This document shows positions 24,331 to 42,551 of a stretch of 64,000 nucleotides of DNA, in pieces. Origin of the DNA: Candidatus Kryptoniota bacterium (GTDB taxonomy: Bacteria > Bacteroidota > Ignavibacteria > Kryptoniales > JAKASW01); contig JBJKPN010000185.1 of the NCBI GenBank assembly GCA_046706365.1, forward strand, positions 1,113-65,112, written 5' to 3'. The position numbers and the translations under genes were made by a program. Positions within the stretch are counted from its first letter, which is position 1; every line of letters begins with the position of its first letter. The notes below the pieces were generated by a model, which was not told the origin of the DNA, searched no databases, and saw nothing but the letters and a program-made list of their open reading frames with translations.

Positions 24331-24340
24331 GACATTCCTC

Positions 24341-25454: not shown

Positions 25455-25617
25455 TCAAAGGGCCCGGTCATTCAGCTTGGAGGGAATTTGTAGGCAAGCG
25501 GAATCTCAAACGCTTTCTGATTCTCAAAGCACCTCTTGGGTTGAATAGTTTCACTGGCTCTTGATCCTGAGTTAATTTCGAGATTATGACGCAAAAATAC
25601 CGAAAACGGTTTAAAAA

Positions 25618-26665: not shown

Positions 26666-27093
26666 TTCCTGGAAAGCTTTGTGAGTGCATAGGCCGCCGC
26701 GAAGTAGGAGTACTTGCCGAAGCCGGTTACCGTGGCCCTGCATATTTCCGAGATGACGCTCTTCCTGCGGAACTCTTCCCGGGAAAACACCTGCGACATG
26801 TGGACTTCCACCACGGGTTTATTAATAGCCGCGATGGCGTCTCTCAGAGCGTAGCTATAATGGGAGAGGGCGCCGGCGTTCAGTATTATGCCGTCGGCAC
26901 CGTTGATTCGGGCGGCATGAATCTTCTCGATGAGCTCACCCTCCGCGTTGGTCTGAAAGAAATCGAAATCGATAGCCGGGAATTCTTTTCGGAGTCCGGC
27001 GTTGATTTCGTCAAGCGTGTCGGTGCCGTAAACCTTCGGCTCACGCAGTCCCGTCAGATTCAGATTCGGCCCGTTTAACACCAGAATTTTCAT
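26662..27093 (-). CDS. aroQ: type II 3-dehydroquinate dehydratase
   Basis: 143 aa. The sequence MKILVLNGPNLNLTGLREPKVYG...FFQTNAEGELIEKIH...IILNAGALSHYS is the AroQ signature. Confidence 0.9.
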   Translation of the reverse strand: MKILVLNGPNLNLTGLREPKVYGTDTLDEINAGLRKEFPAIDFDFFQTNAEGELIEKIHAARINGADGIILNAGALSHYSYALRDAIAAINKPVVEVHMSQVFSREEFRRKSVISEICRATVTGFGKYSYFAAAYALTKLSRK

Positions 27094-27367
27094 TTTTATT
27101 CTCCGCCTGTTCTTCTACATACTCTCGCACGGCCGGCTTCAGGAAGACGTTCTCTACGCCGACTTCAACGAGGCTTCTCGCTATGGTCGAGGCCCGGTGT
27201 TTCGGATCGAACCTCTTATTTATCACGATCAGCTTTTCCTCCTTGAGGATGCAATAGCCGCCGCTGAAGTCTCCCTTTTCGTAAATGACCTTTAGCCCGA
27301 GCTGGGAAGCCGCTTCTTCCAGCTCAGCTATCAATGCTTCTGTTTTCAGTCTCGGCATTTTCACCAA
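27041..27367 (-). CDS. hypothetical protein (108 aa)
   Basis: Soluble, with protein-like composition (LIAELEEAASQLGLKVIYEKGDFSGGYCILKEEKLIVINKRF...). It overlaps both neighbours (44 nt upstream, 53 nt with aroQ). Family not recognised. Confidence 0.5.
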   Translation of the reverse strand: MVKMPRLKTEALIAELEEAASQLGLKVIYEKGDFSGGYCILKEEKLIVINKRFDPKHRASTIARSLVEVGVENVFLKPAVREYVEEQAENKNENSGVKRAESESDGTA

Positions 27368-27977
27368 TCTTTTCAGTTATCCTCGGCTTAATCGGGCGGA
27401 AGACGATTGCGGCGATCGCACTGTAATATGACAGGATGGCGATCACCGAAAGTCCACCGAGCCCACTGACACGTTCGACGAAAAGCCGCCTCATCTCGTC
27501 GCGCAACGGACCCGGGTCCGCGCCCAGAAAGAGCTGCAGTTGAAAATCCACATAAGAAACGAAGAATCTCAAGTCAAGATAACACGTATATAATTCAACA
27601 GGAATAAAGATTCCGAAAAGTATCGCTGCCATCAAAATATTCGGATGGTCCTTCATCCTGATGTCTGATTTGAGTACGAATATCACGAAGCCGATCAGCG
27701 CAAGGATGTATCCGAAATCCGTAAGGAGAGAAGTCCTTGCAAGGAGATCGTAGATTTCCTTTTCCGCATCGAAGGGAATATCCTGTCTGAATTTCAGCGT
27801 CCCGAGCTCGACAAGATTATTGCCGATTATTCCACGTGCCGCGGAGCCGCCGAGGTAGAAGATTCCCCCCACGATCATGATGAAGATTGCGGTCTTGACT
27901 CCCCTGGATAGGCCCTCGTTATCTCCTGCAGTGCCGGTGGATAAGTCGTTATCGGCGGCAATATTCTCGGGGAGCAT
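27324..27977 (-). CDS. hypothetical integral membrane protein
   Basis: The start is taken at Met45 (MLPENIAADN, ATG 27977), just after the upstream stop at 27983. Four to five TM helices. No motif recognised. Confidence 0.5.
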   Translation of the reverse strand: MLPENIAADNDLSTGTAGDNEGLSRGVKTAIFIMIVGGIFYLGGSAARGIIGNNLVELGTLKFRQDIPFDAEKEIYDLLARTSLLTDFGYILALIGFVIFVLKSDIRMKDHPNILMAAILFGIFIPVELYTCYLDLRFFVSYVDFQLQLFLGADPGPLRDEMRRLFVERVSGLGGLSVIAILSYYSAIAAIVFRPIKPRITEKIGENAETENRSIDS

Positions 27978-27982
27978 CTCTG

Positions 27983-28825
27983 TTACAGGGTTTCCGGAGT
28001 TTCGACGAATTCGGCCTCGCATTTTACCGGCAGAAGTGCCCGCTCGAATGCAAGGTTCAGAAAGAGCTGGATTGCCTCCCTCCCTTTCACGCCGTAGTCC
28101 AGCGTCCAATCGTTCACGTACATGCCGACGAATTTGTCGGCGAGGTTAGTGTTCATACCGCGGGCGAAACCGAGCGCATAGTCGAGAGCCGCTTGCCTGT
28201 TCTCGAGAGAGTATGCAATGCTCTTTTTCAGGTAGTAAGCCACTTTCTTTTTCAAATCCTCCGGAAGGTCGCGTCTTATCACGTTTCCACCGAGCGGAAG
28301 CGGCAGGTTGAACTTGTCTTTGAACCATACGCCGAGGTCGACGATGTTGTGAAGACCGCTCGTTTCGTAAGTAAGCTGTCCTTCGTGGATGATCAGTCCC
28401 GCCTCGAATTCACCTGCAAGCACCTTGTCTATTATCTGATCGAACGGCACAACCTCGTATTCGAACGTTCCGGCGAATATGCTGAGGGCAAGGAAAGCCG
28501 AGGTTCTCCTGCCAGGTATCGCGATCTTCAGCTTGTTGATGTCCCCGACCTTGTACGGTTTTGTGCTGACGAGCATCGGGCCGTAACCGTCGCCCATGCT
28601 GGCACCGCTGCTCAGCATTTGATATTTGTCGGCAATGTACGGATAAGCATGAATGGATACCGCGCTTACTTCGTACTCGCCTTTCATCGCCTTCTGGTTG
28701 AGCGTTTCTATATCGCTTAGAATATTTTCAAACTCAATTTCGCCCGTATCGAACTTCCTGTTCGCAAGGGCGTAGAACATGAATGCGTCGTCCGAATCCG
28801 GGCTGTGAGCTACTCTAATCTTCAA
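27983..28825 (-). CDS. MqnA/MqnD-family (VitK2_biosynth, periplasmic-binding-protein fold) menaquinone/futalosine-pathway protein
   Basis: 280 aa. The N-terminus MKIRVAHSPDSDDAFMFYAL... and overall layout resemble the MqnA/MqnD family. I cannot tell from sequence alone which enzyme it is. Confidence 0.6.
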   Translation of the reverse strand: MKIRVAHSPDSDDAFMFYALANRKFDTGEIEFENILSDIETLNQKAMKGEYEVSAVSIHAYPYIADKYQMLSSGASMGDGYGPMLVSTKPYKVGDINKLKIAIPGRRTSAFLALSIFAGTFEYEVVPFDQIIDKVLAGEFEAGLIIHEGQLTYETSGLHNIVDLGVWFKDKFNLPLPLGGNVIRRDLPEDLKKKVAYYLKKSIAYSLENRQAALDYALGFARGMNTNLADKFVGMYVNDWTLDYGVKGREAIQLFLNLAFERALLPVKCEAEFVETPETL

Positions 28826-28826
28826 C

Positions 28827-29600
28827 CTACTTTCCTTTCTTCACTTTCGTCTTTTTTGATTTTGAAAACTTGAACGCAGATGGACAAAGATCGCTTACTG
28901 TGCAGAGATCGCATTTCGGATTGCGGGCCAGGCAGACTTTTCTGCCGTGAGACATCAACAAGTGGCACAGCTGCGTCCATTCATCTTCAGGAAACAGCGC
29001 CATCAGATCAAATTCAATTTTGGTGGGATCGTCCTCATGACTGAATCCCATCCGACGGGCAAGTCTCCCGACGTGCGTATCGACGGCGATGCCAGGTATC
29101 CCGAATGCATTACCGAGAAGCACATTAGCCGTTTTCCGGCCGACGCCGGCAAGAGTCAGTAGCTCATCCATGCTGGCCGGTATCTTCCCGCCGAAATTTT
29201 CGACGAGTGAGCGGCTGCAGTTTGTAATCGACCTGGCTTTCTGCCTGTAGAAACCGGTTGATTTGATATCCCGCTCCAGCTCGGCTTGATTCGCAGAAGC
29301 AAAGCTTTTCGGTGAAGGATACTTTCTGAACAGGTCCGGCGTTACCATATTGACCCGTGCGTCCGTACATTGTGCCGAAAGTATCGTGGCGATCAGCAGC
29401 TCGAACGGTGAGTTGAAGTTCAATGCCACTTTCGCATCGAGGTACTCCCCCGCCAGCAGCGAGAAAATCTGGCTTGCCCGCTTCTTATCCGACGCTCTCC
29501 GAGAGTCTGCGGTTGCTTTTGACTTTGTGTTCTTGGGTTTCAAGTCATCCGGTGTTTTCTTGTGCACGTGAAATTTAGTCAACGAGCCCTGCTTAGGCAA
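28827..29600 (-). CDS. nth: endonuclease III (DNA glycosylase/AP lyase) with basic N- and C-terminal extensions
   Basis: HhH-GPD core (LLTLAGVGRKTANVLLGNAFG.PGIAVDTHV) and a 4Fe-4S loop C-x6-C-x2-C-x5-C (CLARNPKCDLCTVSDLC). It has a TTG start, a ~45-aa Lys/Ser-rich N-terminal tail and a KSKKTKVKKGK C-terminal tail. Confidence 0.85.
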   Translation of the reverse strand: MPKQGSLTKFHVHKKTPDDLKPKNTKSKATADSRRASDKKRASQIFSLLAGEYLDAKVALNFNSPFELLIATILSAQCTDARVNMVTPDLFRKYPSPKSFASANQAELERDIKSTGFYRQKARSITNCSRSLVENFGGKIPASMDELLTLAGVGRKTANVLLGNAFGIPGIAVDTHVGRLARRMGFSHEDDPTKIEFDLMALFPEDEWTQLCHLLMSHGRKVCLARNPKCDLCTVSDLCPSAFKFSKSKKTKVKKGK

Positions 29601-29690
29601 ACACGGGCCTCAACGAAGGGGGCCCGCCGGACCCTGGCCGGATGTACGTCCACCTACCTTCAGTAGGATTCCGGGCGTCAGGCTCGCTTG

Positions 29691-30071
29691 TCATTCGACA
29701 GAGGGCTTCACTTCCTCCGTAGCCAAAGGGGGATACAATCTTCTGTCGGGCTTATACCTTGGATCTTTCAGTAGCAGTCGCTCGACCACTTCGCCGGCAA
29801 CGATGTGCCTGTCTATTATTTCCGCGATGTCATCCTTCGTCACGTGACTGTACCAGACTCCCTCGGGATATATTACGATATTCGGCCCGTATTCGCAGAC
29901 ATCCAGACAGCCAGACTTGTTTGCACGCACTTTGGTTTTTAAGCCGCGGGCGTGGAGCTCTCTTTTAAACAAATCGCGAATGTCCTCGCTCCCTTTCTGG
30001 GCGCACGACCCTTTCGGGTCATCATCTTCTCTTCTGTTCGTACAGATAAAAATGTGCCTGATGTATCTCAT
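29691..30071 (-). CDS. thioredoxin-like [2Fe-2S] ferredoxin
   Basis: 126 aa. The sequence HIFICTN.....GSCA..GS...... KSGCLDVCEYGPNIVIYPEGVWY matches the Cys pattern and fold signature of thioredoxin-like 2Fe-2S ferredoxins. Confidence 0.75.
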   Translation of the reverse strand: MRYIRHIFICTNRREDDDPKGSCAQKGSEDIRDLFKRELHARGLKTKVRANKSGCLDVCEYGPNIVIYPEGVWYSHVTKDDIAEIIDRHIVAGEVVERLLLKDPRYKPDRRLYPPLATEEVKPSVE

Positions 30072-30325
30072 TTTTCAGAACCCGAACAATTGTTTGAATT
30101 GATTATGATCAGAATATCATTCTCGGCGGTACTTTCTTTCAAGACGTCGTCGGGCGAGTATTCGAAATTTTTCGTCAGATTCACAAGCGAATAAGATCCT
30201 TCGGTTTGCGCCCAGCCGAAAAAATTCCGCGCGATTTTCTTAACCTGATTTTCGGCGGTCGTATCGGCGTCGATTTCCATCCTGACTATCTCCCCGGAGA
30301 AACCTTTGCCGACAAATACCTGCAT
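30068..30325 (-). CDS. small hypothetical protein, possible ubiquitin-like beta-grasp fold
   Basis: 85 aa from the ATG at 30325 (TAATG overlap with the upstream stop; the ORF track starts 2 codons earlier at a TTG). There is an ATGA overlap with the downstream ferredoxin. The sequence starts MQVFV and has KEST at residues 63-66, as in ubiquitin (see finding). Confidence 0.5.
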   Translation of the reverse strand: MQVFVGKGFSGEIVRMEIDADTTAENQVKKIARNFFGWAQTEGSYSLVNLTKNFEYSPDDVLKESTAENDILIIINSNNCSGSEK

Positions 30326-30615
30326 TACCAATACCCCGTAGTTATGCTCACGTCGCCGAATACCCTTGTGGTGCAGGCGACCCGCTCGTTCTGACCGAAG
30401 TTTCCCCTTGCCATGAGCTTCTTCTCACACTCGGACGGCTGCGAAAGGTTCATCATGCCATCGACAATTTCTACCTTGCACCATCCGCAGACGCAATCCC
30501 CACGACATGAACTTCCGATGGGCACCCCGTTCACACGCGCTGCCTTGAAAAGAGTCTCCCCTTTCTTGATCTCCACTTCCTTGCTAAGCGGGACAAATTT
30601 AACCTTTGGCATCAT
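30325..30615 (-). CDS. [2Fe-2S] ferredoxin-like protein (plant-type beta-grasp)
   Basis: 96 aa with the Cys cluster SSCRGDCVCGWCKV plus a distal Cys (RVACTT), as in the 2Fe-2S fer2 domain. Confidence 0.65.
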   Translation of the reverse strand: MMPKVKFVPLSKEVEIKKGETLFKAARVNGVPIGSSCRGDCVCGWCKVEIVDGMMNLSQPSECEKKLMARGNFGQNERVACTTRVFGDVSITTGYW

Positions 30616-32323
30616 TCAGAAATTTCTTAGCCTGCTCGGTATCCATTGTGTTGAGGAGATCGTCTTTTGTCAGCCAGCCTTTTCGTGCAATGAAGACGCC
30701 GTAAACAAAGTCAGACAAACCCGCTACCGAGTGGGCATCAGGGTTGATCGAGAATTTGACGCCGGCCGCTTTGGCCTTCTTCAATTGCCTCCAGTCCATG
30801 TCCAGCCTGTGAGGGTTCGCATTGATCTCTATGACCTTCCTGTTGCGCGCCGCAAGCTTGACGACCTCCTCGATATCGAGCTCGTAACCGTCGCGGCCCA
30901 GCAGAAGGCGGCCGGTCATGTGTCCGAGAAATGTCAGATTGGGATTCTTTAAAGCGGCCAGGACTCGCTTTGTCGCCTCGTCCTTTTTCATGCTCAGTTT
31001 GCTGTGAACCGAGCCGACGGAGAAATCGAGTTTTTTTAGAACAGCGTCACTGAAATCGAGTTTGCCGTCGGCCAGTATGTCGACTTCGCTACCCTTGAAA
31101 ACCGTAAAGTCTTCCTCGCTGCTGTTCAACTCATCGACAGCGTCCGATTGTTCCTTGAGCCTCTTCTCGTCCAGCCCGTTTGCATAGAATGCAGCTTTGC
31201 TGTGATCGCTCAACCCCAAATATTTCAGCCCCAGTTTTCTTGCTCCGGCAACCATATCTTCGAGAGAATCCGCACCGTCGCTCCAGTTTGTATGGACATG
31301 GAAGAGTCCCTGTATATCTTCCAGCTTCACAAGGTCCGGGATCTCACCCTTCGAGGCGGCCGTGACCGCCTCTTCGTCATCGCGAAGTTCCGGCGGCACA
31401 AACTGAAGCCCGATCTCCCCGAATATCTCCTCTTCCGACTCGAACCTTATCTTGTCCCTCCCCTTCTTCAGCTCGCGGATCCCGAGATTGTACCCTCTGG
31501 ACGACGCGTATTCTTTCAGCCTGGCGAAGAAGTCTTTGCTGCCGGTCGAATGGAGGACTGCGAATGGATATTCGGCCTTGTTCACGATAATAAATTCAAT
31601 GGGGACTCCGTTTTCCCAGACAACGGAAACCAGATCGTCCTGTACGTCTTTGACTTGCCTGACCCCTTTTAATTTTTTGAGCGCCGCAAAAAGCTTGTCC
31701 CGCTCTCCGGACTTGAAATTTATTACACAATCCAGATCGCGTATCACTTCGCGCCTTCGCCGATAGCTTCCGGTAAACTGATAGCGTTCGACACCCTTGA
31801 GTTTCTCGAGGTATTTAGAAACCTGCATCGCCGTCTCGTGTATCAGATCAAGCAGGTGATATTCGCTATTCGCCTTGATGCGGCCAATCTCTTTGAGGAC
31901 CTTGTCTTGCGTTTTCTGCCCGAACCCTTTCAGAGGAACCAGCCTGTTCTCGTTACAGGCATACTCCAGCTCGGAAATCGACTTGATGTCCAGCTGTTCG
32001 AACAACGCGCGAACCTTGTTAGGACCGAGGCCCTGGATGTCGAACAGAGCAGGCAATCCAGGAGGGAGTGAATCCCTTATCTCTTCCAGGAAACTCATTT
32101 TCCCGGTTTCAACCAATTCCGTCAGTTTTTTCGAAAGTGCTTCTCCTACGCCGGGGATTTTCTTCGCCTCCCCCTTCTCGATCAGTTTGACGACATCGAC
32201 CGTGGAGCGGCCGATCGATCGTGCAGCCCTGGAGTAGGCGTTGACCTTGAATTTGTCCTCGCCTTTCAGCTCCAGGAGAGAGGCAATCTCCTCAAGTGTT
32301 CCGATAATCGCCTTCTTGTCCAC
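30599..32323 (-). CDS. polX: family X DNA polymerase with C-terminal PHP phosphoesterase domain
   Basis: 574 aa with a GTG start. N-terminal HhH region (LEEIASLLELKGEDKFKVNAYSRAARSI), a pol-beta-like nucleotidyltransferase core (GSYRRRREVIRDLD) and a PHP domain (HVHTNWSDG...SDH). Confidence 0.85.
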   Translation of the reverse strand: MDKKAIIGTLEEIASLLELKGEDKFKVNAYSRAARSIGRSTVDVVKLIEKGEAKKIPGVGEALSKKLTELVETGKMSFLEEIRDSLPPGLPALFDIQGLGPNKVRALFEQLDIKSISELEYACNENRLVPLKGFGQKTQDKVLKEIGRIKANSEYHLLDLIHETAMQVSKYLEKLKGVERYQFTGSYRRRREVIRDLDCVINFKSGERDKLFAALKKLKGVRQVKDVQDDLVSVVWENGVPIEFIIVNKAEYPFAVLHSTGSKDFFARLKEYASSRGYNLGIRELKKGRDKIRFESEEEIFGEIGLQFVPPELRDDEEAVTAASKGEIPDLVKLEDIQGLFHVHTNWSDGADSLEDMVAGARKLGLKYLGLSDHSKAAFYANGLDEKRLKEQSDAVDELNSSEEDFTVFKGSEVDILADGKLDFSDAVLKKLDFSVGSVHSKLSMKKDEATKRVLAALKNPNLTFLGHMTGRLLLGRDGYELDIEEVVKLAARNRKVIEINANPHRLDMDWRQLKKAKAAGVKFSINPDAHSVAGLSDFVYGVFIARKGWLTKDDLLNTMDTEQAKKFLNDAKG

Positions 32324-32916
32324 TACAGTCCCCCTGCAAATTTAAGAATGGCCCCTCCCTGGATCGCTGTCAGGATGATTCCGAGAGCTGAACCTGCAAT
32401 CACCTGCATTTTTGTATGCGCTTTGAGTTCGACTCTTGCCCATGCAATGATCGCCACGAGAGGAAAAGCATAAAGCACGACAGGACCTAGTGCGATTGCC
32501 AGAAGGGTCAAAGGACCGGCCGCCCCCATTGCGTGAGCACTGATTTTCCATTTCACATTGATCAGCGAAATGATAAGAGTGTTCGATATATAACAGAACA
32601 TCAATGCACAGACCGCTGTCGATGCCTGCAGCAATATAAGGGCAATCAGACCAAGTAAATAAATCAGTGCTGAAACGACGTATGGGATTGTCCGCTGCTG
32701 ACGAATCGGGACATCGATTTGGGTCACTTTAGATCGGCGCAAAAGAATGAAGAGATATAGAAACGGCAGGACAGAACCGAAGAGAACGGCGACTGCGGCC
32801 ACAATGATTTCATAACTACCTTGCCGTGTAAGGAAAGAAAGGAGCAGAAATGCGACGCATGCAAAGGTAGTCGGCATAAAAATGTACGATATGATGTGTG
32901 CGGCTCCGGCTTTCAC
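32323..32916 (-). CDS. PAP2-family membrane phosphatase (tentative)
   Basis: 197 aa with 6 TM helices. KISAHAMG and RVELKAHTKMQVIAG fit PAP2 motifs C2/C3 (SxH ... R....H...D-like). The stop overlaps the polX start by 1 nt. Confidence 0.55.
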   Translation of the reverse strand: MKAGAAHIISYIFMPTTFACVAFLLLSFLTRQGSYEIIVAAVAVLFGSVLPFLYLFILLRRSKVTQIDVPIRQQRTIPYVVSALIYLLGLIALILLQASTAVCALMFCYISNTLIISLINVKWKISAHAMGAAGPLTLLAIALGPVVLYAFPLVAIIAWARVELKAHTKMQVIAGSALGIILTAIQGGAILKFAGGL

Positions 32917-33016
32917 TTTTGTAATTTAGCCTTATTGCCACGACATTTGAAAGCGGAACCGACATAAAACCCCCGACGCTGGGCATCCCGATTTGTCACG
33001 GGCATTATCGTGGAAG

Positions 33017-33238
33017 TCATTCGGCCAGTTCGACAAGTTTGTTCCTCGCAGCGGCACCTCTTACCAAGCGAAGCTTCGACCTCGGGACTTTCAGAAATCC
33101 GCTCAGCGACTCGAGCGTAGCATCGTTGGCCCGTCCTTCGATCGGCTTTGCCCTCACGAACACTTCGAAACTGTCGTTCCCCCTTTGTACCACAATGTCT
33201 CGCTTCGAGCCCGGATGAACCTTTACCTTGATCAGCAT
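33017..33238 (-). CDS. DUF167 (YggU) family protein
   Basis: 73 aa. The sequence LIKVKVHPGSKRD.....G...EV.V.A.P.EG.AN......L...L.V.....LV.G..ARNK is the DUF167 pattern. Confidence 0.75.
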   Translation of the reverse strand: MLIKVKVHPGSKRDIVVQRGNDSFEVFVRAKPIEGRANDATLESLSGFLKVPRSKLRLVRGAAARNKLVELAE

Positions 33239-33343
33239 ACAATAATATCAAGATTGAATTCCCAATATCAAAACCTGTTTCGCTTGTGTTCTAGAATTTT
33301 CCCTTTTTGTTGAGATGCTTTCGCGTTATATTACTGCGCAATT

Positions 33344-33418
33344 CGGGGCGTGGCTCAGCCCGGTTAGAGCGCTTGGTTCGGGACCAAGAGGTCGTGGGTT
33401 CGAATCCCACCGCCCCGA
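33344..33418 (+). tRNA. tRNA-Pro (anticodon CGG)
   Basis: Hand-folded cloverleaf. Acceptor CGGGGCG/CGCCCCG plus discriminator A. D-stem GCTC/GAGC. Anticodon stem CTTGG/CCAAG with loop TT-CGG-GA (33379-33381, G37). Variable loop AGGTC. T-arm GTGGG-TTCGAAT-CCCAC. CCA is not encoded. Confidence 0.9.
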
Positions 33419-33485
33419 CACACCTTAGTTTTACGATCCCATTTTTTCGCTACACTTGTGAGTTCTGTCTCCCCGTCCGGAGGAT

Positions 33486-33558
33486 GAGGTCGTGGGTTCT
33501 CCCGCTATGAGCTGAAAGCTCTTTGCGGGATCCCTTCGGGAGAATCCCACCGCCCCGA
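33486..33558 (+). repeat. tRNA-Pro 3'-segment copy 1, with a 42-nt insert in the T-loop (33500-33541)
   Basis: GAGGTCGTGGGTTC | TCCCGCTATGAGCTGAAAGCTCTTTGCGGGATCCCTTCGGGA | GAATCCCACCGCCCCGA. Confidence 0.9.
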
Positions 33559-33626
33559 CACACCTTAGTTTTACGATCCCATTTTTTCGCTACACTTGTG
33601 AGTTCTGTCTTCCTCGTCCGGAGGAT

Positions 33627-33699
33627 GAGGTCGTGGGTTCTCCCGCTATGAGCTGAAAGCTCTTTGCGGGATCCCTTCGGGAGAATCCCACCGCCCCGA
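33627..33699 (+). repeat. tRNA-Pro 3'-segment copy 2, with the identical 42-nt insert (33641-33682)
   Basis: Identical to copy 1 over all 73 nt. Confidence 0.9.
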
Positions 33700-33952
33700 C
33701 ACACCTTAGTTTTACGATCCTAATATTTCCGCTACACTTGTGAGTTCTGGCTTCCTCGTCCGGGGGATCAGGTCGGGGGATCTCCCGCGACTGGCCGGGC
33801 GTCTTTTGGAAAATCAATCCGATGGGATTCAATGGTCGCGCGAGGGAAGTGCGCGCTTCAATACCGGACATCCCCCTCTACTATTCAACCCTGTCCCGCG
33901 CGCCCTTCTCCTTAGCAGTTGACTTCAATTAGGCGAGGCCTCACTTCCGAAG

Positions 33953-34789
33953 TCAGGCGAACTTTTCCTGAAGTGACTTCGAGTAAATCAGAGGGTTCTG
34001 AGTGTCATCGTTCAGCAGGTCGCCGATTTTCAGCTTCGCCACTTGCTCGTCCGTCAGAATATTCTTGATACCGTTGAATGTCGCACCGTCGGGCATATAG
34101 GCACAGGTCATCGCGCGACGAGATCCGGGGGTCATGTTGGCTCCTGCACCGTGAATGGTCAGACCGTTGTGGAACGAACAGCTCCCCGCCTTCATTGGAA
34201 CGGCCTTCGGTTCACATGTTGCGAGCCCGGGATACAGGTCGAAAATTGCATCCATGTTCTTTCCGATTCCGGGATTTTCAAACCCCGTCTTATGACAGGA
34301 GCCTGGCATGAAATACAAGCATCCGTTCTGATATGTCGCGTCGTCGAGTGCCACCCAGATCGAGATAGCACGCCGGTCGCTGAAGGACCAGAATGGCGTA
34401 TCGAGATGCCATGCCGTCGGGTTCGCCCATGGCCGTTTGATCAGTGCCTGGTCGTGCCAGATCCTGATCCCTTCACAGCCTGACAATTCTGCCGCCAGCT
34501 TGCCGAGCCTCTCGTCCAGCATCAATCCCCTCATCTTCTCGTTTGTCTGCCAGAGGTTTATCAACTGGTCGAACACTTTTCCGTAATATTCAGCATCTTT
34601 GTTTATGCCGTCGTCTTCCCCCGTTTTTATTTCCTCTCCAGGAAACTTCCGCCCGCCTCTCTCAGCAGTAGCTTCTCCCACTGCTTCTCTCCAGTACGCA
34701 AGCTCCTCCGTATCCAGCAGGTTCTCTATCAGAACGAAACCGTTTTCCCTGTAGCTCCGGATTTGCGATTCCGTCAACTCCGTTTTCAT
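33953..34789 (-). CDS. phytanoyl-CoA dioxygenase (PhyH) family Fe(II)/2-oxoglutarate oxygenase
   Basis: The start is taken at Met27 (MKTELTESQIRSYRENGFVLIENLL, AGGAAGG upstream). His-x-Asp in WHLDTPFW and a distal His in TIHGAGAN. Confidence 0.75.
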   Translation of the reverse strand: MKTELTESQIRSYRENGFVLIENLLDTEELAYWREAVGEATAERGGRKFPGEEIKTGEDDGINKDAEYYGKVFDQLINLWQTNEKMRGLMLDERLGKLAAELSGCEGIRIWHDQALIKRPWANPTAWHLDTPFWSFSDRRAISIWVALDDATYQNGCLYFMPGSCHKTGFENPGIGKNMDAIFDLYPGLATCEPKAVPMKAGSCSFHNGLTIHGAGANMTPGSRRAMTCAYMPDGATFNGIKNILTDEQVAKLKIGDLLNDDTQNPLIYSKSLQEKFA

Positions 34790-34962
34790 AAGCGCTGCCT
34801 TCCTTTCTCTGCTTTGAAGCTTAAACCTCACACTTGATGGGCTCCGCGGCCGAGAAAACTGACTCAATCTTCGTTTGTCTCGCCCGTTTCAAGAGACGCC
34901 TCGTACTTCATAACCACGCGGCAGACCCGTGTGTTCCCGACATCAGAATCGGATCGAGATTG

Positions 34963-35109
34963 AAAATCAGGGCGTTGGCCGAGACAGGGAGTTCACTCAC
35001 TCGAAAGGGAGACAAATCGATGAAGTGGGAGGAATGACGGTTCCATTCTGTTGCGAACGCAGGTCGACCATTAGGCTCGACACGTAAAACGGCGGCTTGC
35101 CCTGATTTT
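34963..35109. repeat. 147-nt element closed by a perfect 11-bp inverted repeat
   Basis: AAAATCAGGGC (34963-34973) and GCCCTGATTTT (35099-35109) are exact reverse complements. Inner hairpins are GAATG/CATTC (35032-35048) and GTCGA/TCGAC (35063-35081). The right arm abuts or overlaps the vWA stop codon. Confidence 0.6.
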
Positions 35110-36215
35110 TAGGGAAGCGTGCTGTTGAATTTCTTCCTGCGGTTGCGGATGTAGTCGACGAAGATGTACTCGCCCAATTTGTTAAGCGAGGAGTAATATG
35201 CCCGGCCCTTGTTCGCCCGTGTGAGTTCCTCCACGAAATTGATAAGGTAAGGGTCTTTAGCAACCATGAAAGTGCTTATTACCACTTTTTCTCTGCGGCA
35301 GGCAACTGCTTCGTCAAGAGTCTTATTGACTATTCTGGGGTCCAGCCCGAACGAATTCCTGTACAGTTTTCCTGATTCTTCGAAGATTGCGGAAGGCTTG
35401 CCGTCTGTAACCAGGAAGATCTGTCGGTTGACATTCCCCTTCCTCCTCAGAATGCTTCTCGCCAACCTGAGTGCTGCAAGAGTATTTGTGTGGTACGGGC
35501 CGACAGTCACGAAAGGAAGCTCCGCCAGGGTGATTTCCTTTGCGTCATCCCCGAACACGACAATATTCAGGTGATCTTTGGGAAACTTCGTCCTTATCAA
35601 CTCTGCAAGCGCAAGCGAGACTTGTTTAGCCGGAGTGATCCTATCCTCTCCGTAAAGAATCATCGAATGACTTATATCGAGAAGTACGACCGTCGCACAA
35701 TTTGTCATGTGCTCCGTCTCGTAGATTTCAATATCGTCCTCCCTGAGCCTGAAGTTCTCTATGCTGTCGTGCTTCAGGGCGTTCGTTAAAGTCGAAGTGA
35801 GATCGATATTTGTCGGGAGATCACCGAACGTATACTTCTTCGTCTCGCTCAGCCTGTCGATTCCCTGCCCGGTGTGCGGGGATTCATGTGAACCTTCGGG
35901 GCTCTTCTTCAGGTTGGAAAACACTTCTCTCAGTGCGTCCTCACGAATGCGCTGGACTCCCTTGGAGGTAAGTATAACGACATCCTTCGCATCCTCGACA
36001 TATCCCAGCTCTTTCAACTTATCGATAAAATCGTCGAGGCTCATATCCTCATCGAACAGCTCATATTCCTGCCCAAGCTGGCGCATCCAGTCGAGAGCCT
36101 CTTCCGTATCTCCGCTCGTCTGAAGGAGAAGGTAACTGAACAGCGATATCATGTTCTGGAGCCGCTGTTCGTCGGTCATCGAATTTTCAGTCCATCTCGA
36201 ATATCTGAATCTCAT
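35109..36215 (-). CDS. von Willebrand factor type A (vWA) domain protein
   Basis: 368 aa. The C-terminal vWA domain has the MIDAS motif VVLLDISHSM and later TDG. The N-terminal acidic helical region is not recognised. Confidence 0.75.
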   Translation of the reverse strand: MRFRYSRWTENSMTDEQRLQNMISLFSYLLLQTSGDTEEALDWMRQLGQEYELFDEDMSLDDFIDKLKELGYVEDAKDVVILTSKGVQRIREDALREVFSNLKKSPEGSHESPHTGQGIDRLSETKKYTFGDLPTNIDLTSTLTNALKHDSIENFRLREDDIEIYETEHMTNCATVVLLDISHSMILYGEDRITPAKQVSLALAELIRTKFPKDHLNIVVFGDDAKEITLAELPFVTVGPYHTNTLAALRLARSILRRKGNVNRQIFLVTDGKPSAIFEESGKLYRNSFGLDPRIVNKTLDEAVACRREKVVISTFMVAKDPYLINFVEELTRANKGRAYYSSLNKLGEYIFVDYIRNRRKKFNSTLP

Positions 36216-36239
36216 GACTTATCTCCCCATTTTCTCACT

Positions 36240-36887
36240 CTACTTTTCCGCAATTATCATATGAACAAACTGGTTGCCTTCCCTTTCAGCCCGCAGTGTA
36301 CTATCCGGCCCGTGCCCCGGATATATTCTGACATCTGACGGTAAAGACATTATTCTTTCTGAGATGCTCCTTGATATTTCTTCAGCAGACCCGGTGGGAA
36401 GGTCCGTCCGTCCAATCGACCTGTTGAATAGTGTGTCGCCCGTGAAGAGAATCTTTTCTTCCTTTGAGTAGAGACAAACCGATCCCGTAGAATGTCCGGG
36501 TGTATGCATAACCTTGAACTCATATTTTCCGACGGAAATCACTGACCCCTCCTCAATGAAGCGCTCAATTGCGACCGGTTCAACCTTCTCGGGAGGAGTA
36601 ATGACCATCCCGTTAGGGTCCTTCATCATCCACTCATCACCCGCATGCGCACACACTTTTGCGCCGGTTAGAGCGGCCATCTTCTTTATTTCACCCACGT
36701 GATCCCAATGTCCGTGGGTGGCCACGATATACTTAATACCGATTCCGAGCTCTCGTATCCTGCGGTAAATCTTTTCGGAAGACCACATCGGCACATCGAT
36801 CACAACACCTTCTTTCGAATCAGCGTCATAGACGAGATATCCGATAGTCCAGATCGGCCCGTCTTCGAACTTCTCGACCGAAAGCAT
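36240..36887 (-). CDS. MBL-fold metallo-hydrolase (glyoxalase II-like)
   Basis: 215 aa with the HxHxDH motif (ATHGHWDHVG), later HTPGHS and GDTLF, and a distal His (PGHG). Confidence 0.8.
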   Translation of the reverse strand: MLSVEKFEDGPIWTIGYLVYDADSKEGVVIDVPMWSSEKIYRRIRELGIGIKYIVATHGHWDHVGEIKKMAALTGAKVCAHAGDEWMMKDPNGMVITPPEKVEPVAIERFIEEGSVISVGKYEFKVMHTPGHSTGSVCLYSKEEKILFTGDTLFNRSIGRTDLPTGSAEEISRSISERIMSLPSDVRIYPGHGPDSTLRAEREGNQFVHMIIAEK

Positions 36888-38395
36888 CAGTCTTCCTCGT
36901 ATCTTCCTTTGGGCGGGAAGATGCTTCCGACAAGGTCTTTATAGGCAACGGTATTATCCGTGTCGTCCTTGGCAATTCGCGAAAACTGGTGCAGACCGTC
37001 GAGGACAAATTCCATGCTGGTGGCCAGCTCGTACTTCTTTGAATCGTCCACTTTCATGTGGCGCTTAACTACGTCCTTCAGGTTTGTGACCTTATTCAGC
37101 TCCGAGTAATAATCGTCGAAAGGCATATCGTCGGCGACTTCAATTTTGTTTCCCGCTTCGAACCAGGAGATTATCGGTGTGTATTCGTCATCGCGCTTCT
37201 TCGGCTCTTCTCCCTGAACGGTGCGAATTCTTTTCTGAAGAGGATCGGGAAAATACTTCTTGAATATCTCCCTGACCGCTTTGCCGATCAGGGCCCTGCT
37301 TACTTTGACGGATCCTTCCTGCTCCCCTTCGAAAACGAGCTCGAGTTTTCCGGTCATACCGGGGAGCACCTGTTGAAGGTCGCAAATGCGGGGAACGATC
37401 ACCTTTTCGTTGTTTGTGATCGCACGTCGTTCCGCACTGCTGATAAGGTTCTCCATTACAGAGATAGTCATTCGCACGCTCACACCGCTTTTCTGGTCGA
37501 CGAATTCGCTGCCGCGCGCCTGGAACGCTATTCCTTCGATAATCTCCCTCAGGTATGCCGGCATGACGACGTCTCTCCCGCCGTCCCTGGTGAGCCACGC
37601 CTCCTGTTCGGTAATTCTCATCGCTTCTTCCAATGTCCGGGGATAATGGGTGAGAATCTGCGAATCTATTCTGTCTTTGAGCGGCGTGATTATGTTGCCT
37701 CGGTTCGTGTAATCTTCCGGGTTGGCCGTAAATACCATCAATATGTCGAGCGGGATCCTTACGTTGAAACCGCGAATTTGAATATCCTTTTCTTCCATGA
37801 TGTTGAAAAGCCCGACCTGAATTCTCGGTTGAAGGTCGGGGAGTTCATTGATCGTGAATATGCCACGATTGGTCCGCGGAATTATTCCGAAGTGGATCGC
37901 TCCCTCATGCGAGTAGTGCAGCTTCTGAACGGCCGCTTTTATAGGATCGATGTCTCCGATCAAATCTGCGATTGTAACGTCTGGCGTCGCAAGCTTCTCG
38001 CCGTACCGCTGATCGCGCGTCAGCCATTCTATCTCGACGTCGTCTCCCCGTTCTTGAATGAGATCGACACATCGTTTGCAAACCGGTTTGTAAGGGCTGT
38101 CGTTGATCTCGCATCCCTTTATTACCGGGATCCGTTCATCGAGCAGGCTGTTTAGGCTTCGGGCGATTCTCGTCTTCGCCTGCCCTCTAAGCCCCAGCAA
38201 GATCATGTCGTGCTTTGCAAGCAATGCATTGACTATCGAAGGGATGACTGTCTTCTCATATCCGATTATTCCGTTAAACAGTGTTTCCCCCTTGTCGAGC
38301 TTAGCGATCAGGTTCTTCCTAATCTCGTCCTTCACGGGAAGAACTTTGTATCCGCTACTCTTCAGTTCTGCAATCGTGCGCGGCAGCTGCTTCAT
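36887..38395 (-). CDS. AAA+ ATPase of the Mg-chelatase ChlI/BchI-like clade
   Basis: 502 aa with Walker A LLGLRGQAKTR. GIFTINELPDL sits at the Walker B position. The downstream sensor region and a long C-terminal extension fit the clade. Paired with a vWA protein, as ChlI/ChlD-type systems are. Confidence 0.7.
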   Translation of the reverse strand: MKQLPRTIAELKSSGYKVLPVKDEIRKNLIAKLDKGETLFNGIIGYEKTVIPSIVNALLAKHDMILLGLRGQAKTRIARSLNSLLDERIPVIKGCEINDSPYKPVCKRCVDLIQERGDDVEIEWLTRDQRYGEKLATPDVTIADLIGDIDPIKAAVQKLHYSHEGAIHFGIIPRTNRGIFTINELPDLQPRIQVGLFNIMEEKDIQIRGFNVRIPLDILMVFTANPEDYTNRGNIITPLKDRIDSQILTHYPRTLEEAMRITEQEAWLTRDGGRDVVMPAYLREIIEGIAFQARGSEFVDQKSGVSVRMTISVMENLISSAERRAITNNEKVIVPRICDLQQVLPGMTGKLELVFEGEQEGSVKVSRALIGKAVREIFKKYFPDPLQKRIRTVQGEEPKKRDDEYTPIISWFEAGNKIEVADDMPFDDYYSELNKVTNLKDVVKRHMKVDDSKKYELATSMEFVLDGLHQFSRIAKDDTDNTVAYKDLVGSIFPPKGRYEED

Positions 38396-38626
38396 ACTTT
38401 CCTCTTACTTCTGCTGTGAATTTATTTTTACGTTTTCCTAAATGCAACCTGTCCTTACCATGACTCATGCATCCTCTCACTCACAAACATAACGACAACT
38501 TTCTCTCGACGGTTATTCTCTCAATACAAGAAATGTTCAATGTAAAATACCTCAGAATCAAGACAAGTACCGACGATTAACACTAAGGCGAACATGCGCC
38601 GGATCGGGTCGGGAACCGATTCGCGA

Positions 38627-38655
38627 TTGACACATCTTCTCTAAATTCATATTTT
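38627..38655 (+). promoter_or_regulatory. candidate sigma70-type promoter of the GT9 gene
   Basis: TTGACA (38627-38632), a 17-nt spacer, then TATTTT (38650-38655). The -10 ends 6 nt before the ATG at 38662 and no SD is visible. Confidence 0.4.
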
Positions 38656-38661
38656 CTAACA

Positions 38662-39669
38662 ATGTCAAGCTCAAAAAAGCTCCTCATACGTTTAAGCTCC
38701 GCCGGCGATGTGCTTCTCACTTCGCCGCTTTTGAGATTGATAAAAGAGACAGAGCCCGATTCCGAAATACATTTTGTCGTAAAGTCATCGTACGCTGACA
38801 TTGTTCGATTTAATCCTAACGTCAGCCGTATCCATTTAGTTCAGGAACATGCGGACGTACAACAGCTCGAAAACCTGAGGCGGAGTCTCATTTCCGAGCA
38901 TTTTGAAACTACGCTCGACCTGCACAACAACTTCCGGAGCGTTTACCTGAGAAAGAATACCGCGAAGGAAGTGCGGGTCATCAGAAAGGATATCCTCAAG
39001 CGAGCAGTCCTGATCAAGACAAAAGCGAGCCTTTATTCGGATATAAGGCCGGTCGCTTTGAAGTATGCGCAGACCTACGATAAAACGCTTTCGACTGTTC
39101 CTCCGCCGGAAATATTTATACCGGAGGAAGCCGAGGACAGGGCCGCCGCTCTCTGGAACTCTGCCGGACTGGAAAGTCAGCAGGCGGTTTTCCTTTGCCC
39201 CGGTGCAAAGCACTTCACGAAACGCTGGCCCGTCGAGTACTGGTCGCTTCTGGCCCGGAAGCTGTCGCGGGAACACCGGATCGTTTTGGTTGGCGGCACC
39301 GGCGACACAGGAGCGTGCGCGCAAATTGCGAAATACTCGGGGGCCCTGGACTACAGCGGTAAGCTATCTCTCGTCGAAAGCGTGGCCATGATGAGGAATG
39401 CTTCAATCGTCGTCACGAACGACTCGTTTCTAATGCACGCAGCAAATGCCGTCGGAAAGAAGATCGTGGCTATCTTCGGGTCCAGCGTCCGGGAATTCGG
39501 CTTCTTCCCCTACGGAGTCAGGAACACTATCCTCGAGATGGAAGGGATGAAGTGCCGTCCATGCTCCCATGTCGGTCGGGAGTCTTGCCCGAAGGGACAT
39601 TTCAATTGCATGCTCGAGATAAAACCCGATACTGTGCTTGGAGCCGCCAAGTCTCTGCTGGAAAACTGA
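38662..39669 (+). CDS. glycosyltransferase family 9 (LPS heptosyltransferase-like)
   Basis: 335 aa. The N-terminus KKLLIRLSSAGDVLLTSPLLRLIKE and the C-terminal region ...LVGG..D........L.GK.SL.E..A....A...V.NDS..MH.A.A.G are typical of GT9. Confidence 0.8.
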   Translation: MSSSKKLLIRLSSAGDVLLTSPLLRLIKETEPDSEIHFVVKSSYADIVRFNPNVSRIHLVQEHADVQQLENLRRSLISEHFETTLDLHNNFRSVYLRKNTAKEVRVIRKDILKRAVLIKTKASLYSDIRPVALKYAQTYDKTLSTVPPPEIFIPEEAEDRAAALWNSAGLESQQAVFLCPGAKHFTKRWPVEYWSLLARKLSREHRIVLVGGTGDTGACAQIAKYSGALDYSGKLSLVESVAMMRNASIVVTNDSFLMHAANAVGKKIVAIFGSSVREFGFFPYGVRNTILEMEGMKCRPCSHVGRESCPKGHFNCMLEIKPDTVLGAAKSLLEN

Positions 39670-39803
39670 CATTCGCGGGGTTTCAAACAGCGCAGCCGTC
39701 TAACACCGCCTTCACTCTTCAATTCCCGCCCGCTCGGGACGACGCGGTCCTGGTCAATGAGTCGTGATATTACTGCAGCAGACCCGGGCCAAACCAGTCA
39801 ACG

Positions 39804-40700
39804 CTATGACAACTGTATTCCGGCCAGTACTTTGAGGGCCTGGAGGTACTTCTCACTGGTTCCCCTGATGATTTCGTCAGGCAGGACAGGAGCCGGCGGC
39901 TTCTTCTCCCATTTAATCGAAAGGAGATAATCCCTTACAAACTGTTTGTCAAAGCTCGGCTGAGACTTTCCAGGTTCATATCTCGCCTTATCCCAGAATC
40001 TCGAAGAGTCGGGAGTCAACACTTCGTCGATCAAAGTAATGTCACCGCTTTCGTCCAGACCGAACTCCAGCTTTGTGTCGGCGATGATGATTCCTCTGTT
40101 TTCGGCGTAAGCGGCAGCGGCCTTGTAAACTGCGATAGTGTAATCGCGAACTTTTTCTGCGGTCTCTTTTCCTATCAGTTTTACGACCTCGTCGAAGCTT
40201 ATGTTCTCGTCGTGCACTCCGATTTCCGCTTTCGTTGAGGGAGTAAATATCGGCTCGGGGAGTTTGTCAGACTCACGGAGACCCTTCGGAAGGGAGATTC
40301 CGCAAACTGCTCCTGTCTTCTGGTAGTCCTTCCAGCCGGTACCGCTTATGTAACCGCGGACGATGCATTCAACGGGAAGCGGCTTTGTCTTTTTTCCGAT
40401 AACACTCCGGCCGTTCAGGTCCTCCTGATACGGTTTGCACTCTGCCGGATAATCTTTGATGTCGGTTGCGACGACATGGTTCTTGACGATGTTCTTGGAG
40501 AAGTTAAACCAGAAGTTGGAAATCTGATTGAGAACCTTCCCCTTGTAAGGAATCCCGTTCGGAAGTATCACATCGAAGGCGCTGATGCGATCGGTCACTA
40601 CAAAAAGGAGCCTGTCGCCCAGGTCGTATATATCGCGGACCTTACCCCGCTGAAACAGCTTAAGGTCCGAAAAGTCGGTTTTCGTAATTACTTTTTCCAT
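39804..40700 (-). CDS. purC: phosphoribosylaminoimidazole-succinocarboxamide synthase
   Basis: The start is taken at Met46 ([10 protein letters not shown]...). [25 protein letters not shown] and later conserved blocks are the SAICAR synthetase signature. Confidence 0.9.
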
Positions 40701-40968
40701 TTTCCTCTCTCTTTTGATTTGGAACTTGCTGAGATGAATTGGCAAATTCGGGAATCGCCCAATGACGTTTCCTGAAATAAAAATAAGGCCTTTATTTCTA
40801 TTTTCCGAATTGCTACCGGCGACGATTTGGTTCATCTATTCCGATCAGCTGCTTCGCTGCCTATTCATATCGCAATATGCAATAAGCGAGGAGTGACATG
40901 GCTTCTGGCAGGCAGGAGCAATGCTGGCCAGAGCAGGTAGAGAAGATCCGACGTGCAGGACGCAGCTA

Positions 40969-42269: not shown

Positions 42270-42486
42270 AGCTTGCTCCTTTCCAGATGAGAGTTCGGAA
42301 ATTCAGACCGGAGAAACGCGACCTCTCCGCGACAATGATTCCTGTTGAAGTTATACTGCAAATATGGTCAAACCGGTCGAAAGCATCAACTTCAGTACAC
42401 AGGCACCGACAACATGAGCTCTTTTCCCGGTAACCAGACGATCCGGGAGCAGGACGGCAAGTCTCGACTGTATATCAGCGTGTAAA

Positions 42487-42515: not shown

Positions 42516-42551
42516 ACCCCACATAAAAGATGAGATGAATTAACCACACAA

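Follow-up and report, generated by a model that had tools for sequence, protein, structure and literature searches.

The 64,000-nt stretch of DNA considered here (the window) comes from a Candidatus Kryptoniota bacterium (GenBank assembly GCA_046706365.1, contig JBJKPN010000185.1, positions 1,113 to 65,112) and carries a tRNA-Pro(CGG) gene followed by a tandem array of partial copies of that gene. In two of these copies the T-loop is split by a 42-nt, hairpin-forming insert (TCCCGCTATGAGCTGAAAGCTCTTTGCGGGATCCCTTCGGGA), a feature that had been singled out from the letters alone (the sequence-only reading). Comparison with related loci shows that the site 3' of tRNA-Pro is a hotspot, at which a small GIY-YIG gene and a partial tRNA duplicate have been amplified, truncated and lost. 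The insert is probably, though by no means securely, a lineage-specific loop plug in the T-arm apex of a nonfunctional tRNA-Pro(CGG) duplicate, where it would neutralise the duplicated T-arm motif.

The array downstream of tRNA-Pro(CGG)

Tandem Repeats Finder delimits a 141-nt repeat of 2.7 copies (95% matches) at 33402-33788, directly after the intact tRNA gene. A full unit consists of a 56/57-nt spacer, 24 nt of tRNA-like sequence, the 42-mer, and GAATCCCACCGCCCCGAC, which corresponds to the last 18 nt of the tRNA (Table 1). The 24-nt part (TCCGGAGGATGAGGTCGTGGGTTC) spans the tRNA from the anticodon loop to C56 of the T-loop and is 83% identical to 33378-33401. The array copies are 3' fragments, 5'-truncated so that the acceptor 5' strand, the D-arm and the anticodon stem are missing; once the 42-mer is taken out, all that remains is GAGGTCGTGGGTTCGAATCCCACCGCCCCGAC behind a degenerate anticodon-loop segment. 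Because the 5' half of the tRNA is missing, splicing could not yield a tRNA, and the earlier description of the copies as interrupted tRNAs cannot be kept. Both ARAGORN and Rfam recognise a single tRNA in the window, tRNA-Pro(CGG), which is also its sole Rfam family; at E <= 10 over 33250-33960, Rfam returned only this tRNA plus chance matches on the real T-arm.

The sequence-only reading was right about the placement of the inserts. By reference to the neighbouring tRNA at 33344-33419, both lie at T-loop position 56|57, split the T-arm between TTC and GAAT, and are flanked by GGTCGTGGGTTC on the left and GAATCCCACCGCCCCGAC on the right; the copies at 33500-33541 and 33641-33682 are 100% identical. 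The left border is ambiguous, because the first 6 nt of the insert, TCCCGC, recur at 33783-33788 after the T-stem-like sequence of a terminal third copy, from which the remainder of the insert is absent. This terminal copy reads GGTCGGGGGATC|TCCCGCGAC, an imperfect palindrome that forms a T-arm-like hairpin, and the array stops here with no tRNA 3' end following.

It had also been claimed that the inserts stayed perfectly conserved as the spacer drifted. Between units 1 and 2 there are 0/42 differences inside the insert and 2/81 in aligned columns outside it, and when three arrays are pooled the slower change of the insert is not significant (11/218 for spacer vs 1/102 for insert, Fisher p = 0.11). 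The two 42-mers are probably identical because the whole 141-nt unit was recently duplicated in tandem.

Within the 64 kb there is no further copy of the 42-mer with up to three mismatches, and none occurs in shuffled sequences either. A pattern defined by the stems, with loop positions left free, gave 0 matches in 2.9 million viral and 241 million metagenome records, so the 42-mer is not a widespread element. Hairpins in general are not enriched in the window (11 observed vs 19 +/- 6). ORFs (open reading frames) overlapping the array, whose units measure 140-141 nt, have no Pfam support. No terminator or promoter consensus sites were found in the array, and no terminator separates it from tRNA-Pro, whose strand it shares. 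The sigma-70 consensus scan did not pick up the GTTATATTA motif at 33325..33333; (G/C)GTTATATTA also stands upstream of tRNA-Pro in related loci. When the spacer, the 42-mer and the flank were compared with all fetched loci, matches were confined to the tRNA-derived parts and one mini-unit in locus L056. An inverted tRNA 3' remnant at ~33822-33838 was considered as an inversion breakpoint and rejected, its score of 17 not differing significantly from that of shuffles (15 +/- 2.2).

Table 1. Features of the tRNA-Pro(CGG) locus in the window, followed by T-loop inserts of related loci (L-numbers denote the related loci fetched for comparison)
Feature	Position or length	Strand	Remarks
GTTATATTA motif, putative promoter element	33325..33333	+	11 nt upstream of tRNA
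tRNA-Pro(CGG), intact, T-loop uninterrupted	33344..33419	+	ARAGORN; Rfam RF00005, 69.8 bits
Unit 1 spacer, 56 nt	33420..33475	+	No detectable homology to fetched sequences
Unit 1 pseudo-tRNA left part	33476..33499	+	Repeat family D4, 83% identical to 33378-33401; degenerate anticodon-loop/3' stem (TCCGGAGGATGAG), then GTCGTGGGTTC (T-stem 5' strand plus TTC)
Hairpin plug, copy 1	33500..33541	+	Modules A and B
Plug module A, stem	33500-33505 / 33525-33530	+	TCCCGC/GCGGGA
Inner hairpin of module A	33509-33521	+	GAGCT GAA AGCTC
Plug module B	33531-33541	+	TCCC TTC GGGA
tRNA 3' end copy GAATCCCACCGCCCCGAC	33542..33559	+	T-loop 3' half, T-stem 3' strand, acceptor 3' strand; repeat family D1
Unit 2 spacer	33560..33616	+	Relative to unit 1: one substitution, one 1-nt indel
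Unit 2 pseudo-tRNA left part	33617..33640	+	
Hairpin plug, copy 2	33641..33682	+	Identical to copy 1
tRNA 3' end, second copy	33683..33700	+	
Unit 3 spacer, more diverged	33701..33758	+	D1 65%, D3 89%
Terminal degenerate copy	33759..33791	+	TCCGGGGGATCAGGTCGGGGGATC then TCCCGCGAC
L019 insert	24 nt		TCC GAA GGA + TCCCGC TTT GCGGGA
L021 insert, two copies	30 nt		TGCGCC AAA GGCGCA + TCAGC(C/G) TCA GGCTGA
L005, L004, L062, L067 insert	15 nt		TCCGCC TT(C/T) GGCGGA; GAATCC lost; behind GIY-YIG genes
L069 insert, two copies	30 nt		ORF-less 125-nt units; TGCGCC GAA GGCGCA + TCCGCC TCT GGCGGA
L056 = L064, first plugged copy	30-nt insert		
L056 = L064, next copy	60-nt insert		First hairpin's loop holds two further hairpins
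L056 mini-unit			GTGGGA TCCC TTT GGGA GAATCTCAC

Folding of the insert and of the plugged T-arm

A comparison with shuffled controls, which the sequence-only reading had suggested, came out in favour of a stable fold: as RNA, the 42-mer reaches -21.6 kcal/mol (shuffles -11.05 +/- 2.57, z -4.1, 0/200 as good). As DNA it reaches -13.0 kcal/mol (z -5.1), and its antisense strand folds as well as the sense strand. The plug is made up of two GC-rich hairpin modules, one of them with a nested hairpin. The structure drawn by eye was correct in outline and in its 6-bp outer stem; its inner stem and its UUCG mini-hairpin have to be redrawn. The 6-bp stem surrounds a 5-bp hairpin (GAGCU/AGCUC) with a GAA triloop, and the last element is UCCC-UUC-GGGA, with 4 bp and a UUC triloop, rather than a C(UUCG)G tetraloop hairpin.

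When the flanks are included, the T-stem plus UUC/GAA closes a three-way junction at -34.2 kcal/mol (z -3.1), and such plugged T-arm junctions fold with z -3 to -4.5 in five lineages. Two mutually exclusive folds had been envisaged for this region. The alternative register reaches only -22.8 kcal/mol, 11 kcal/mol off the optimum, with a pair probability of 0.0 vs ~0.92 for the T-stem pairs, and a bistable two-state switch is ruled out on energy. In the minimum free energy and centroid structures the junctions are fully paired (T-stem plus UUC/GAA, two hairpins), and these folds contain no 3-nt bulges flanking a 4-bp helix, as would mark a bulge-helix-bulge (BHB) motif. Size, Rfam and fold are thus all negative, which upholds the earlier conclusion that no intron of the group I, group II or BHB kind is involved.

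Hairpin plugs in the T-loops of related loci

The placement of the insert, which had seemed unexplained, recurs elsewhere. Pseudo-tRNA-Pro T-loops in at least six other lineages are split at the identical TTC|RAAT point by analogous hairpin inserts, as part of a tRNA-linked GIY-YIG cassette; the T-loops of all real tRNAs, tRNA-Pro included, are intact. The plugs of relatives comprise one to four hairpins of the form T-N5-loop-N5'-A, and the GIY-YIG genes ahead of the 15-nt plug are intact in L005, L004 and L067. In every tRNA duplicate one or more arms are disrupted, and the disrupting sequence is a hairpin in every lineage except one.

Twelve distinct 15-nt modules, chosen by eye as hairpins, align without gaps as T-N5-N3-N5'-A, with 98.6% of cells paired and 4/6 pairs changed on both sides. 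Across 386 kb of related loci, pseudo T-loops hold 21 of the 26 perfect modules, with 4.25 +/- 2.2 modules expected by chance, and the 5 found elsewhere are at chance level. One isolated module, TCCCGC TTC GCGGGA at 3050-3064 of L006, has the module A stem and lies between two housekeeping genes; its occurrence is consistent with chance. A second metagenome scan, for plugged T-arms, returned 16 loci, among which L056, L062, L064, L067 and L069 are relevant and the remaining 11 are chance matches in high-GC coding DNA. Over 806 kb of fetched loci, a search for plugged T-arms of any tRNA found tRNA-Pro only, plus three matches in apparently one conserved coding sequence.

The window plug shares its parts with these relatives. 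The stem of module A (TCCCGC/GCGGGA) is that of the L019 T-loop module and of the L090 anticodon-arm plug, with GAGCT-GAA-AGCTC nested inside it in the window. Module B and the tRNA 3' end that follows it match the L056 mini-unit (2664-2696) at 94% identity over 33 nt. Judged by its sequence, the window 42-mer is a composite of two such modules.

The L056 locus has further content of its own. At 2648-4950 (= L064 1290-1590), a 2-kb insert lies between tRNA-Pro and three to four differently plugged pseudo-copies; it carries a 273-aa ORF and a 109-aa ORF, the latter MazF/PemK-like by eye, and lacks an integrase. A canonical terminator and then the der GTPase gene follow the plugged copies in L056/L064. 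In L069, a 13-nt copy of the tRNA 5' end lies ~45 nt upstream of the real tRNA at 2019-2094(-).

A GIY-YIG cassette at the same chromosomal site

Twenty-three Kryptoniota loci from metagenome-assembled genomes (MAGs) were found via PolX, and tRNA-Pro(CGG) lies near PolX in 20 of them. Several carry tandem arrays in which each unit terminates with the tRNA 3' end: four copies at 133 nt in L001, two at 312 nt in L015, two at 309 nt in L017, five full units and one truncated unit at 309 nt in L020, and three copies at 108 nt in L021. Tandem amplification of the cassette is frequent, being also seen in L004 and L071, and reaches 5.5 copies overall. The 309-312-nt units encode an 83-aa protein that matches Pfam PF01541 GIY-YIG (E 3e-14 and 3e-15) over residues 1-67 and has no recognisable DNA-binding domain. 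Among the relatives overall, the ORF specifies a stand-alone, UPF0213-like GIY-YIG protein of 81-86 aa, whose closest solved relatives are the UPF0213 proteins 1zg2 (E 9e-7) and 1ywl (E 6.5e-6).

The order of the cassette is tRNA-Pro, GIY-YIG gene and partial tRNA copy, at the same chromosomal site as the window array. The pseudo-tRNA starts in the D-loop and has its anticodon arm swapped for a hairpin (for example TGGCGCG-TTT-CGCGCCA). Past this hairpin its sequence, T-arm and acceptor strand included, does not differ from that of the host tRNA. The stop codon of the ORF falls inside the D-loop-derived pseudo-tRNA sequence in L020, L005, L074, L087, L089 and L090; in most loci it is the TAG of GGT-TAG, and in L089 it is a TAA in CGGTAAAAT. 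Since the ATG lies 2-10 nt past the tRNA 3' end in several loci, the arrangement suggests that the ORF is expressed from the tRNA transcript.

Decay products and empty sites are also present. Internally deleted ORFs occur in L001, L016 and L009; in L007 only the first ~40 nt of the ORF are left, fused to DUF167, and weaker remnants without ATG exist in L008 and L010. The site is empty in L006, L013 and L022. In L019 (4590-4850), a full-length GIY-YIG frame behind the plugged T-loop has no in-frame ATG, GTG or TTG start (AAG TAT for ATG TAC), and is possibly a recently inactivated copy.

A profile search identified at least 7,659 homologous proteins at E <= 1e-8. The same architecture exists on tRNA-Pro(CGG) in Ignavibacteria-like L074 and L087 and in Calditrichaeota L090, and on tRNA-Pro(UGG) in a Chitinophagaceae genome (L089). 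In each of these four loci the D-loop, T-arm and acceptor of the pseudo-tRNA match the host's own tRNA, and the GC hairpin of the anticodon arm differs from case to case. Patescibacteria L076 (1935-2336; also L077-L079) carry a mirror-image cassette on tRNA-Ser(GCT), in the order promoter, 14-nt tRNA 5' fragment, 36-nt nested-hairpin insert in the D-loop, GIY-YIG ORF and intact tRNA-Ser. More distant homologues (L084, L086 and L091) are not adjacent to a tRNA. At 1310-1385 of L087, a degenerate pseudo-tRNA with a TGACGCC AAT GGCGCCA hairpin lies upstream of the real gene. ARAGORN names the cassette pseudo-tRNA at 4569-4639 of L015 a 71-nt 'tRNA-Cys(ACA)', and plugged pseudo-tRNAs are therefore open to misannotation as tRNAs.

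Genomic neighbourhood

The tRNA and its array are bordered by housekeeping genes, on one side DUF167, a PAP2-like membrane protein and PolX, and on the other a PhyH dioxygenase. No integrase- or transposase-like ORFs are present in the 20 kb about the tRNA (24000-44000). The PolX of the window, 84% identical to that of the best of the 23 Kryptoniota MAG loci, assigns the window to Candidatus Kryptoniota, and exact-protein look-ups for two neighbouring window proteins returned no record. In the window (33017-33419) and in its closest relatives L001, L002 and L005, tRNA-Pro and the array are inverted relative to DUF167/PAP2/PolX, with the tRNA divergent from DUF167. In most other Kryptoniota loci (L006-L011, L015-L017, L019-L022) the tRNA is co-oriented and DUF167 begins 10-30 nt past the tRNA or cassette. 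The tRNA-Pro hotspot seems to be a former inversion endpoint.

Origin and role of the plug

The window array is the ORF-less, 2.7-copy version of the arrangement found in relatives, and in lacking an ORF it resembles L021, L069 and L056. It shares with the cassettes the site 3' of tRNA-Pro, units that end in the tRNA 3' end, and a T-loop split by T-(GC stem)-loop-A hairpins; the GIY-YIG ORF is missing. The array might have descended from a GIY-YIG cassette or might have arisen by the same process, and it is probably a relic without current function.

A plausible process is provided by SegB of phage T4, a GIY-YIG endonuclease encoded among tRNA genes, which recognises a 27-bp site whose essential element, GGTTCRANTCC, is the T-arm motif (PMC2330249). 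SegB cuts at the 3' ends of tRNA genes, including those of the phage itself (PMC2330249). SegB breaks combined with homologous recombination also yield tandem repeats of a tRNA and a truncated segB (PMC13096335). Cassette arrays may arise as these repeats do, through nuclease activity followed by homologous recombination. Under this scenario the plug would have several effects. It would break the duplicated GGTTC|GAATCC, so that the duplicate would no longer serve as a recognition or cleavage site for a GIY-YIG nuclease that reads the T-arm. The direct repeat of 32 nt that the duplicate has in common with the real tRNA would be reduced to pieces of 14 and 18 nt; the duplicate would thereby cease to be a recombination partner of the essential gene, and deletion and gene conversion could become less frequent. 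In any read-through RNA, it might turn the T-arm into an inert three-way junction with no tRNA-like T-arm.

A number of observations weigh against this interpretation. No GIY-YIG gene or remnant was detected in the window, where the best tblastn matches have E 0.07-0.5 (a weak one at 63368-63589 falls in riboflavin genes, in the ribE/ribD region) and the best nhmmer match with ORF 5' ends has E 6.4 and lies elsewhere. The window spacer matches no fetched sequence, so the case for descent from the cassette is built on position, on architecture and on the modules held in common. The window copies hold a degenerate anticodon-loop segment, not the GC hairpin of ORF-bearing cassettes, and the cassette nuclease is a bare catalytic domain of 81-86 aa without the DNA-binding domain that gives SegB and I-TevI their specificity. 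Furthermore, the functional tRNA retains an intact T-arm, and full immunity by the plug is therefore impossible. Cassettes whose T-loops carry no plug make up about half of the total and show no obvious loss of stability, and the pairing statistics of the modules are inflated because these were picked by eye as hairpins. Finally, a site or repeat can be broken equally by a sequence that is not a hairpin, and the hairpin form of the plug is not accounted for.

A broader proposal, possible though distinctly doubtful at present, is that undescribed compact selfish cassettes exist in the FCB group and the candidate phyla radiation (CPR), in which an 81-86-aa GIY-YIG protein targets a tRNA gene and a hairpin-plugged pseudo-tRNA is left behind. 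The cassette's own 3' (or 5') copy would rebuild the tRNA, and the displaced part would remain as the pseudo-tRNA. Plugs would neutralise the nuclease-sensitive anticodon arm, T-loop and D-loop of the latter, and ORF-less plugged arrays such as that of the window might be nonautonomous or fossil forms.

The plugs could instead be functionless repair scars, an explanation we regard as unlikely. In duplicates free of constraint, the T-arm quasi-palindrome (GTGGGTTC|GAATCCCAC) would repeatedly suffer breaks or template switches at its apex and gain palindromic filler there, intrastrand correction would keep the palindromes perfect, and nested hairpins would record successive events. Such a process would be in keeping with inserts that are confined to the loops of pseudo-copies (T-loop, anticodon arm and D-loop) and never enter real tRNAs, with hairpins nested in hairpin loops in the window, L056 copy 2 and L076, with stems that resemble T-stem strands (TCCCGC ~ TCCCAC, GCGGG ~ GTGGG), with the presence of TCCCGC in the insert-less terminal copy, with the predominance of triloops over UUCG or GNRA tetraloops, and with the equal folding of both strands. 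It does not readily explain why identical module stems recur across phylum-level lineages with the loops alone varying (TCCGCC/GGCGGA in Kryptoniota and Ignavibacteria-like loci, TCCCGC/GCGGGA in the window, L019 and L090), why modules have a uniform size (6 bp + 3 nt) and constant T...A ends, or why the anticodon-arm hairpin is kept beside intact ORFs across deep divergence. A test for tRNA-templated stems gave a weak result (2/10 exact 6-mers, p 0.03; >=5 nt, p 0.43). Selection at the RNA level appears less probable still. The array might be the 3' trailer of tRNA-Pro, or the 3' untranslated region of the nuclease mRNA in ORF-bearing relatives, with the plugged T-arm junction protecting a 3' end, setting a processing site or acting as a tRNA-like decoy. 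The shared strand with no terminator found in between, the relatives' ORF beginning 2-10 nt past the tRNA and ending at a stop codon in pseudo-tRNA GGT-TAG, and the canonical terminators behind the pseudo-copies in L064 and L089 are what such a transcript would show; in its favour are also the junction z-scores of -3 to -4.5 in five lineages, a T-stem kept even where only 9 nt of it remain (L069), and the sense-strand U.G closing pairs in L074 and L056. An RNA role is hard to reconcile with an antisense strand that folds equally, the absence of an Rfam match, insert conservation within arrays that is not significantly above that of the spacer, the loss of GAATCC and hence of the T-stem in the L005 type, and triloops, which are unusual for selected RNA hairpins.

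Two further possibilities start from insertion. Integrase-borne islands in tRNA-Pro might have left attR-type scars that were later duplicated, with the insert as a T-loop crossover junction. In the window, direct repeats of the 3' part come after an intact tRNA, which is the classical att pattern; Williams reportedly classified the sublocations of integration in tRNA genes in 2002. The L056 insert with its MazF-like gene sits between tRNA and plugged copies, and ORF-less copies begin in the anticodon loop, a common crossover site. We nevertheless consider this origin improbable, since an integrase is absent from the window at 24000-44000 and from the L056 insert, site-specific recombination preserves the overlap region and adds no hairpins, and in relatives this site is mainly occupied by the GIY-YIG cassette. 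Units of 108-141 nt that are identical also speak for tandem duplication and not for successive integrations. Least credible of all is a tRNA intron, a self-cleaving or self-ligating RNA, or a mobile palindrome of the dispersed type, namely miniature inverted-repeat transposable elements (MITEs), repetitive extragenic palindromic (REP) sequences or palindrome-associated transposable elements (PATEs), that landed in the T-loop. Exact loop placement, a stable fold and the single isolated intergenic TCCCGC TTC GCGGGA of L006 are compatible with it, and host copies without the tRNA 5' half and a fold without BHB contradict it. A BHB tRNA intron was rejected because the insert-free host is not a complete tRNA and BHB is absent at both junctions, and a group I or II intron or known ribozyme because 42 nt is far under size and Rfam was negative at E <= 10. 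The sequence-only reading had staked its case against a dispersed MITE or REP-like element, which was looked for and did not emerge: REP, MITE and PATE elements were set aside on the basis of two copies in 64 kb, both in the array, scans with 0 matches, and outside modules at chance level. An IS91-type insertion after GTTC, an integron attC site, CRISPR (clustered regularly interspaced short palindromic repeats) and a type III toxin-antitoxin system were rejected as analogies because they do not match in sizes, motifs and neighbouring genes.

Relationship to known systems

The closest parallel to the cassette is SegB of phages T4 and T6, likewise a free-standing GIY-YIG gene directly beside tRNA genes (PMC2330249; PMC13096335). 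Its essential element GGTTCRANTCC is the motif split by the window plug (PMC2330249). The SegB repeat unit, a tRNA plus a C-terminally truncated nuclease gene, corresponds to the relatives' arrays, in which the ORF ends in tRNA D-loop sequence; SegB repeats contain a full-length tRNA gene, however, and the available portion of the account of these repeats makes no mention of hairpin-plugged pseudo-tRNAs (PMC13096335). Other differences are that the window has no nuclease gene, tandem units of a tRNA part and a nuclease being found only in relatives, and that SegB is a phage protein, whereas the cassette protein is chromosomal and a bare, UPF0213-like catalytic domain of 81-86 aa. SegB carries a C-terminal DNA-binding region.

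UPF0213/YhbQ-type GIY-YIG proteins (1zg2 BH0048, 1ywl EF2693) are of the same sequence family and size as the cassette product. We know of no description of tRNA linkage, a pseudo-tRNA, mobility or a function for proteins of this type. The attL/attR duplications of tRNA genes resemble the array in having an intact tRNA with direct repeats of its 3' segment, an element that supplies or displaces the tRNA 3' part, and a site that is reused; they differ in that here there is no integrase, the repeat is not identical (anticodon arm replaced, T-loop split), and the tandem units are tiny. Like the plug, tRNA introns (archaeal and eukaryal BHB introns at non-canonical positions, bacterial group I introns in anticodon loops) are extra sequence inside a tRNA loop, but here the host is a gene fragment, BHB is absent, the size is not that of a group I or II intron, the plug occurs in a bacterium, and the neighbouring tRNA is complete and uninterrupted. 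REP sequences and bacterial interspersed mosaic elements (BIMEs) share with the plug GC-rich perfect hairpins that are clustered, nested and without a U-tract, and that are possible stabilisers of mRNA 3' ends. In contrast to REP/BIME, the modules are not dispersed, occur only in loops of tRNA duplicates, measure 15 nt with T...A ends, and have no GTAG-type head.

Implications

Partial tRNA duplicates beside tRNA genes and GIY-YIG genes beside tRNA genes are already known. Full-text literature searches did not find the combination of a UPF0213-size nuclease gene, a host-matched pseudo-tRNA that supplies the stop codon, and hairpin plugs, and this architecture is apparently undescribed and recurrent across several bacterial phyla. 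The window 42-mer, probably a decayed example, is of value because it leads to the cassette family. For annotation, the arrays carry a risk of being miscalled as odd tRNAs, as in the case of L015. If the nuclease reads the arms of tRNA genes in the way that SegB reads the T-arm, the tRNA-fragment repeats downstream of tRNA-Pro in these MAGs would be accounted for. The nuclease would then be a minimal endonuclease specific for tRNA genes, and the cassette would represent a new means by which a selfish gene occupies an essential gene and leaves it functional.

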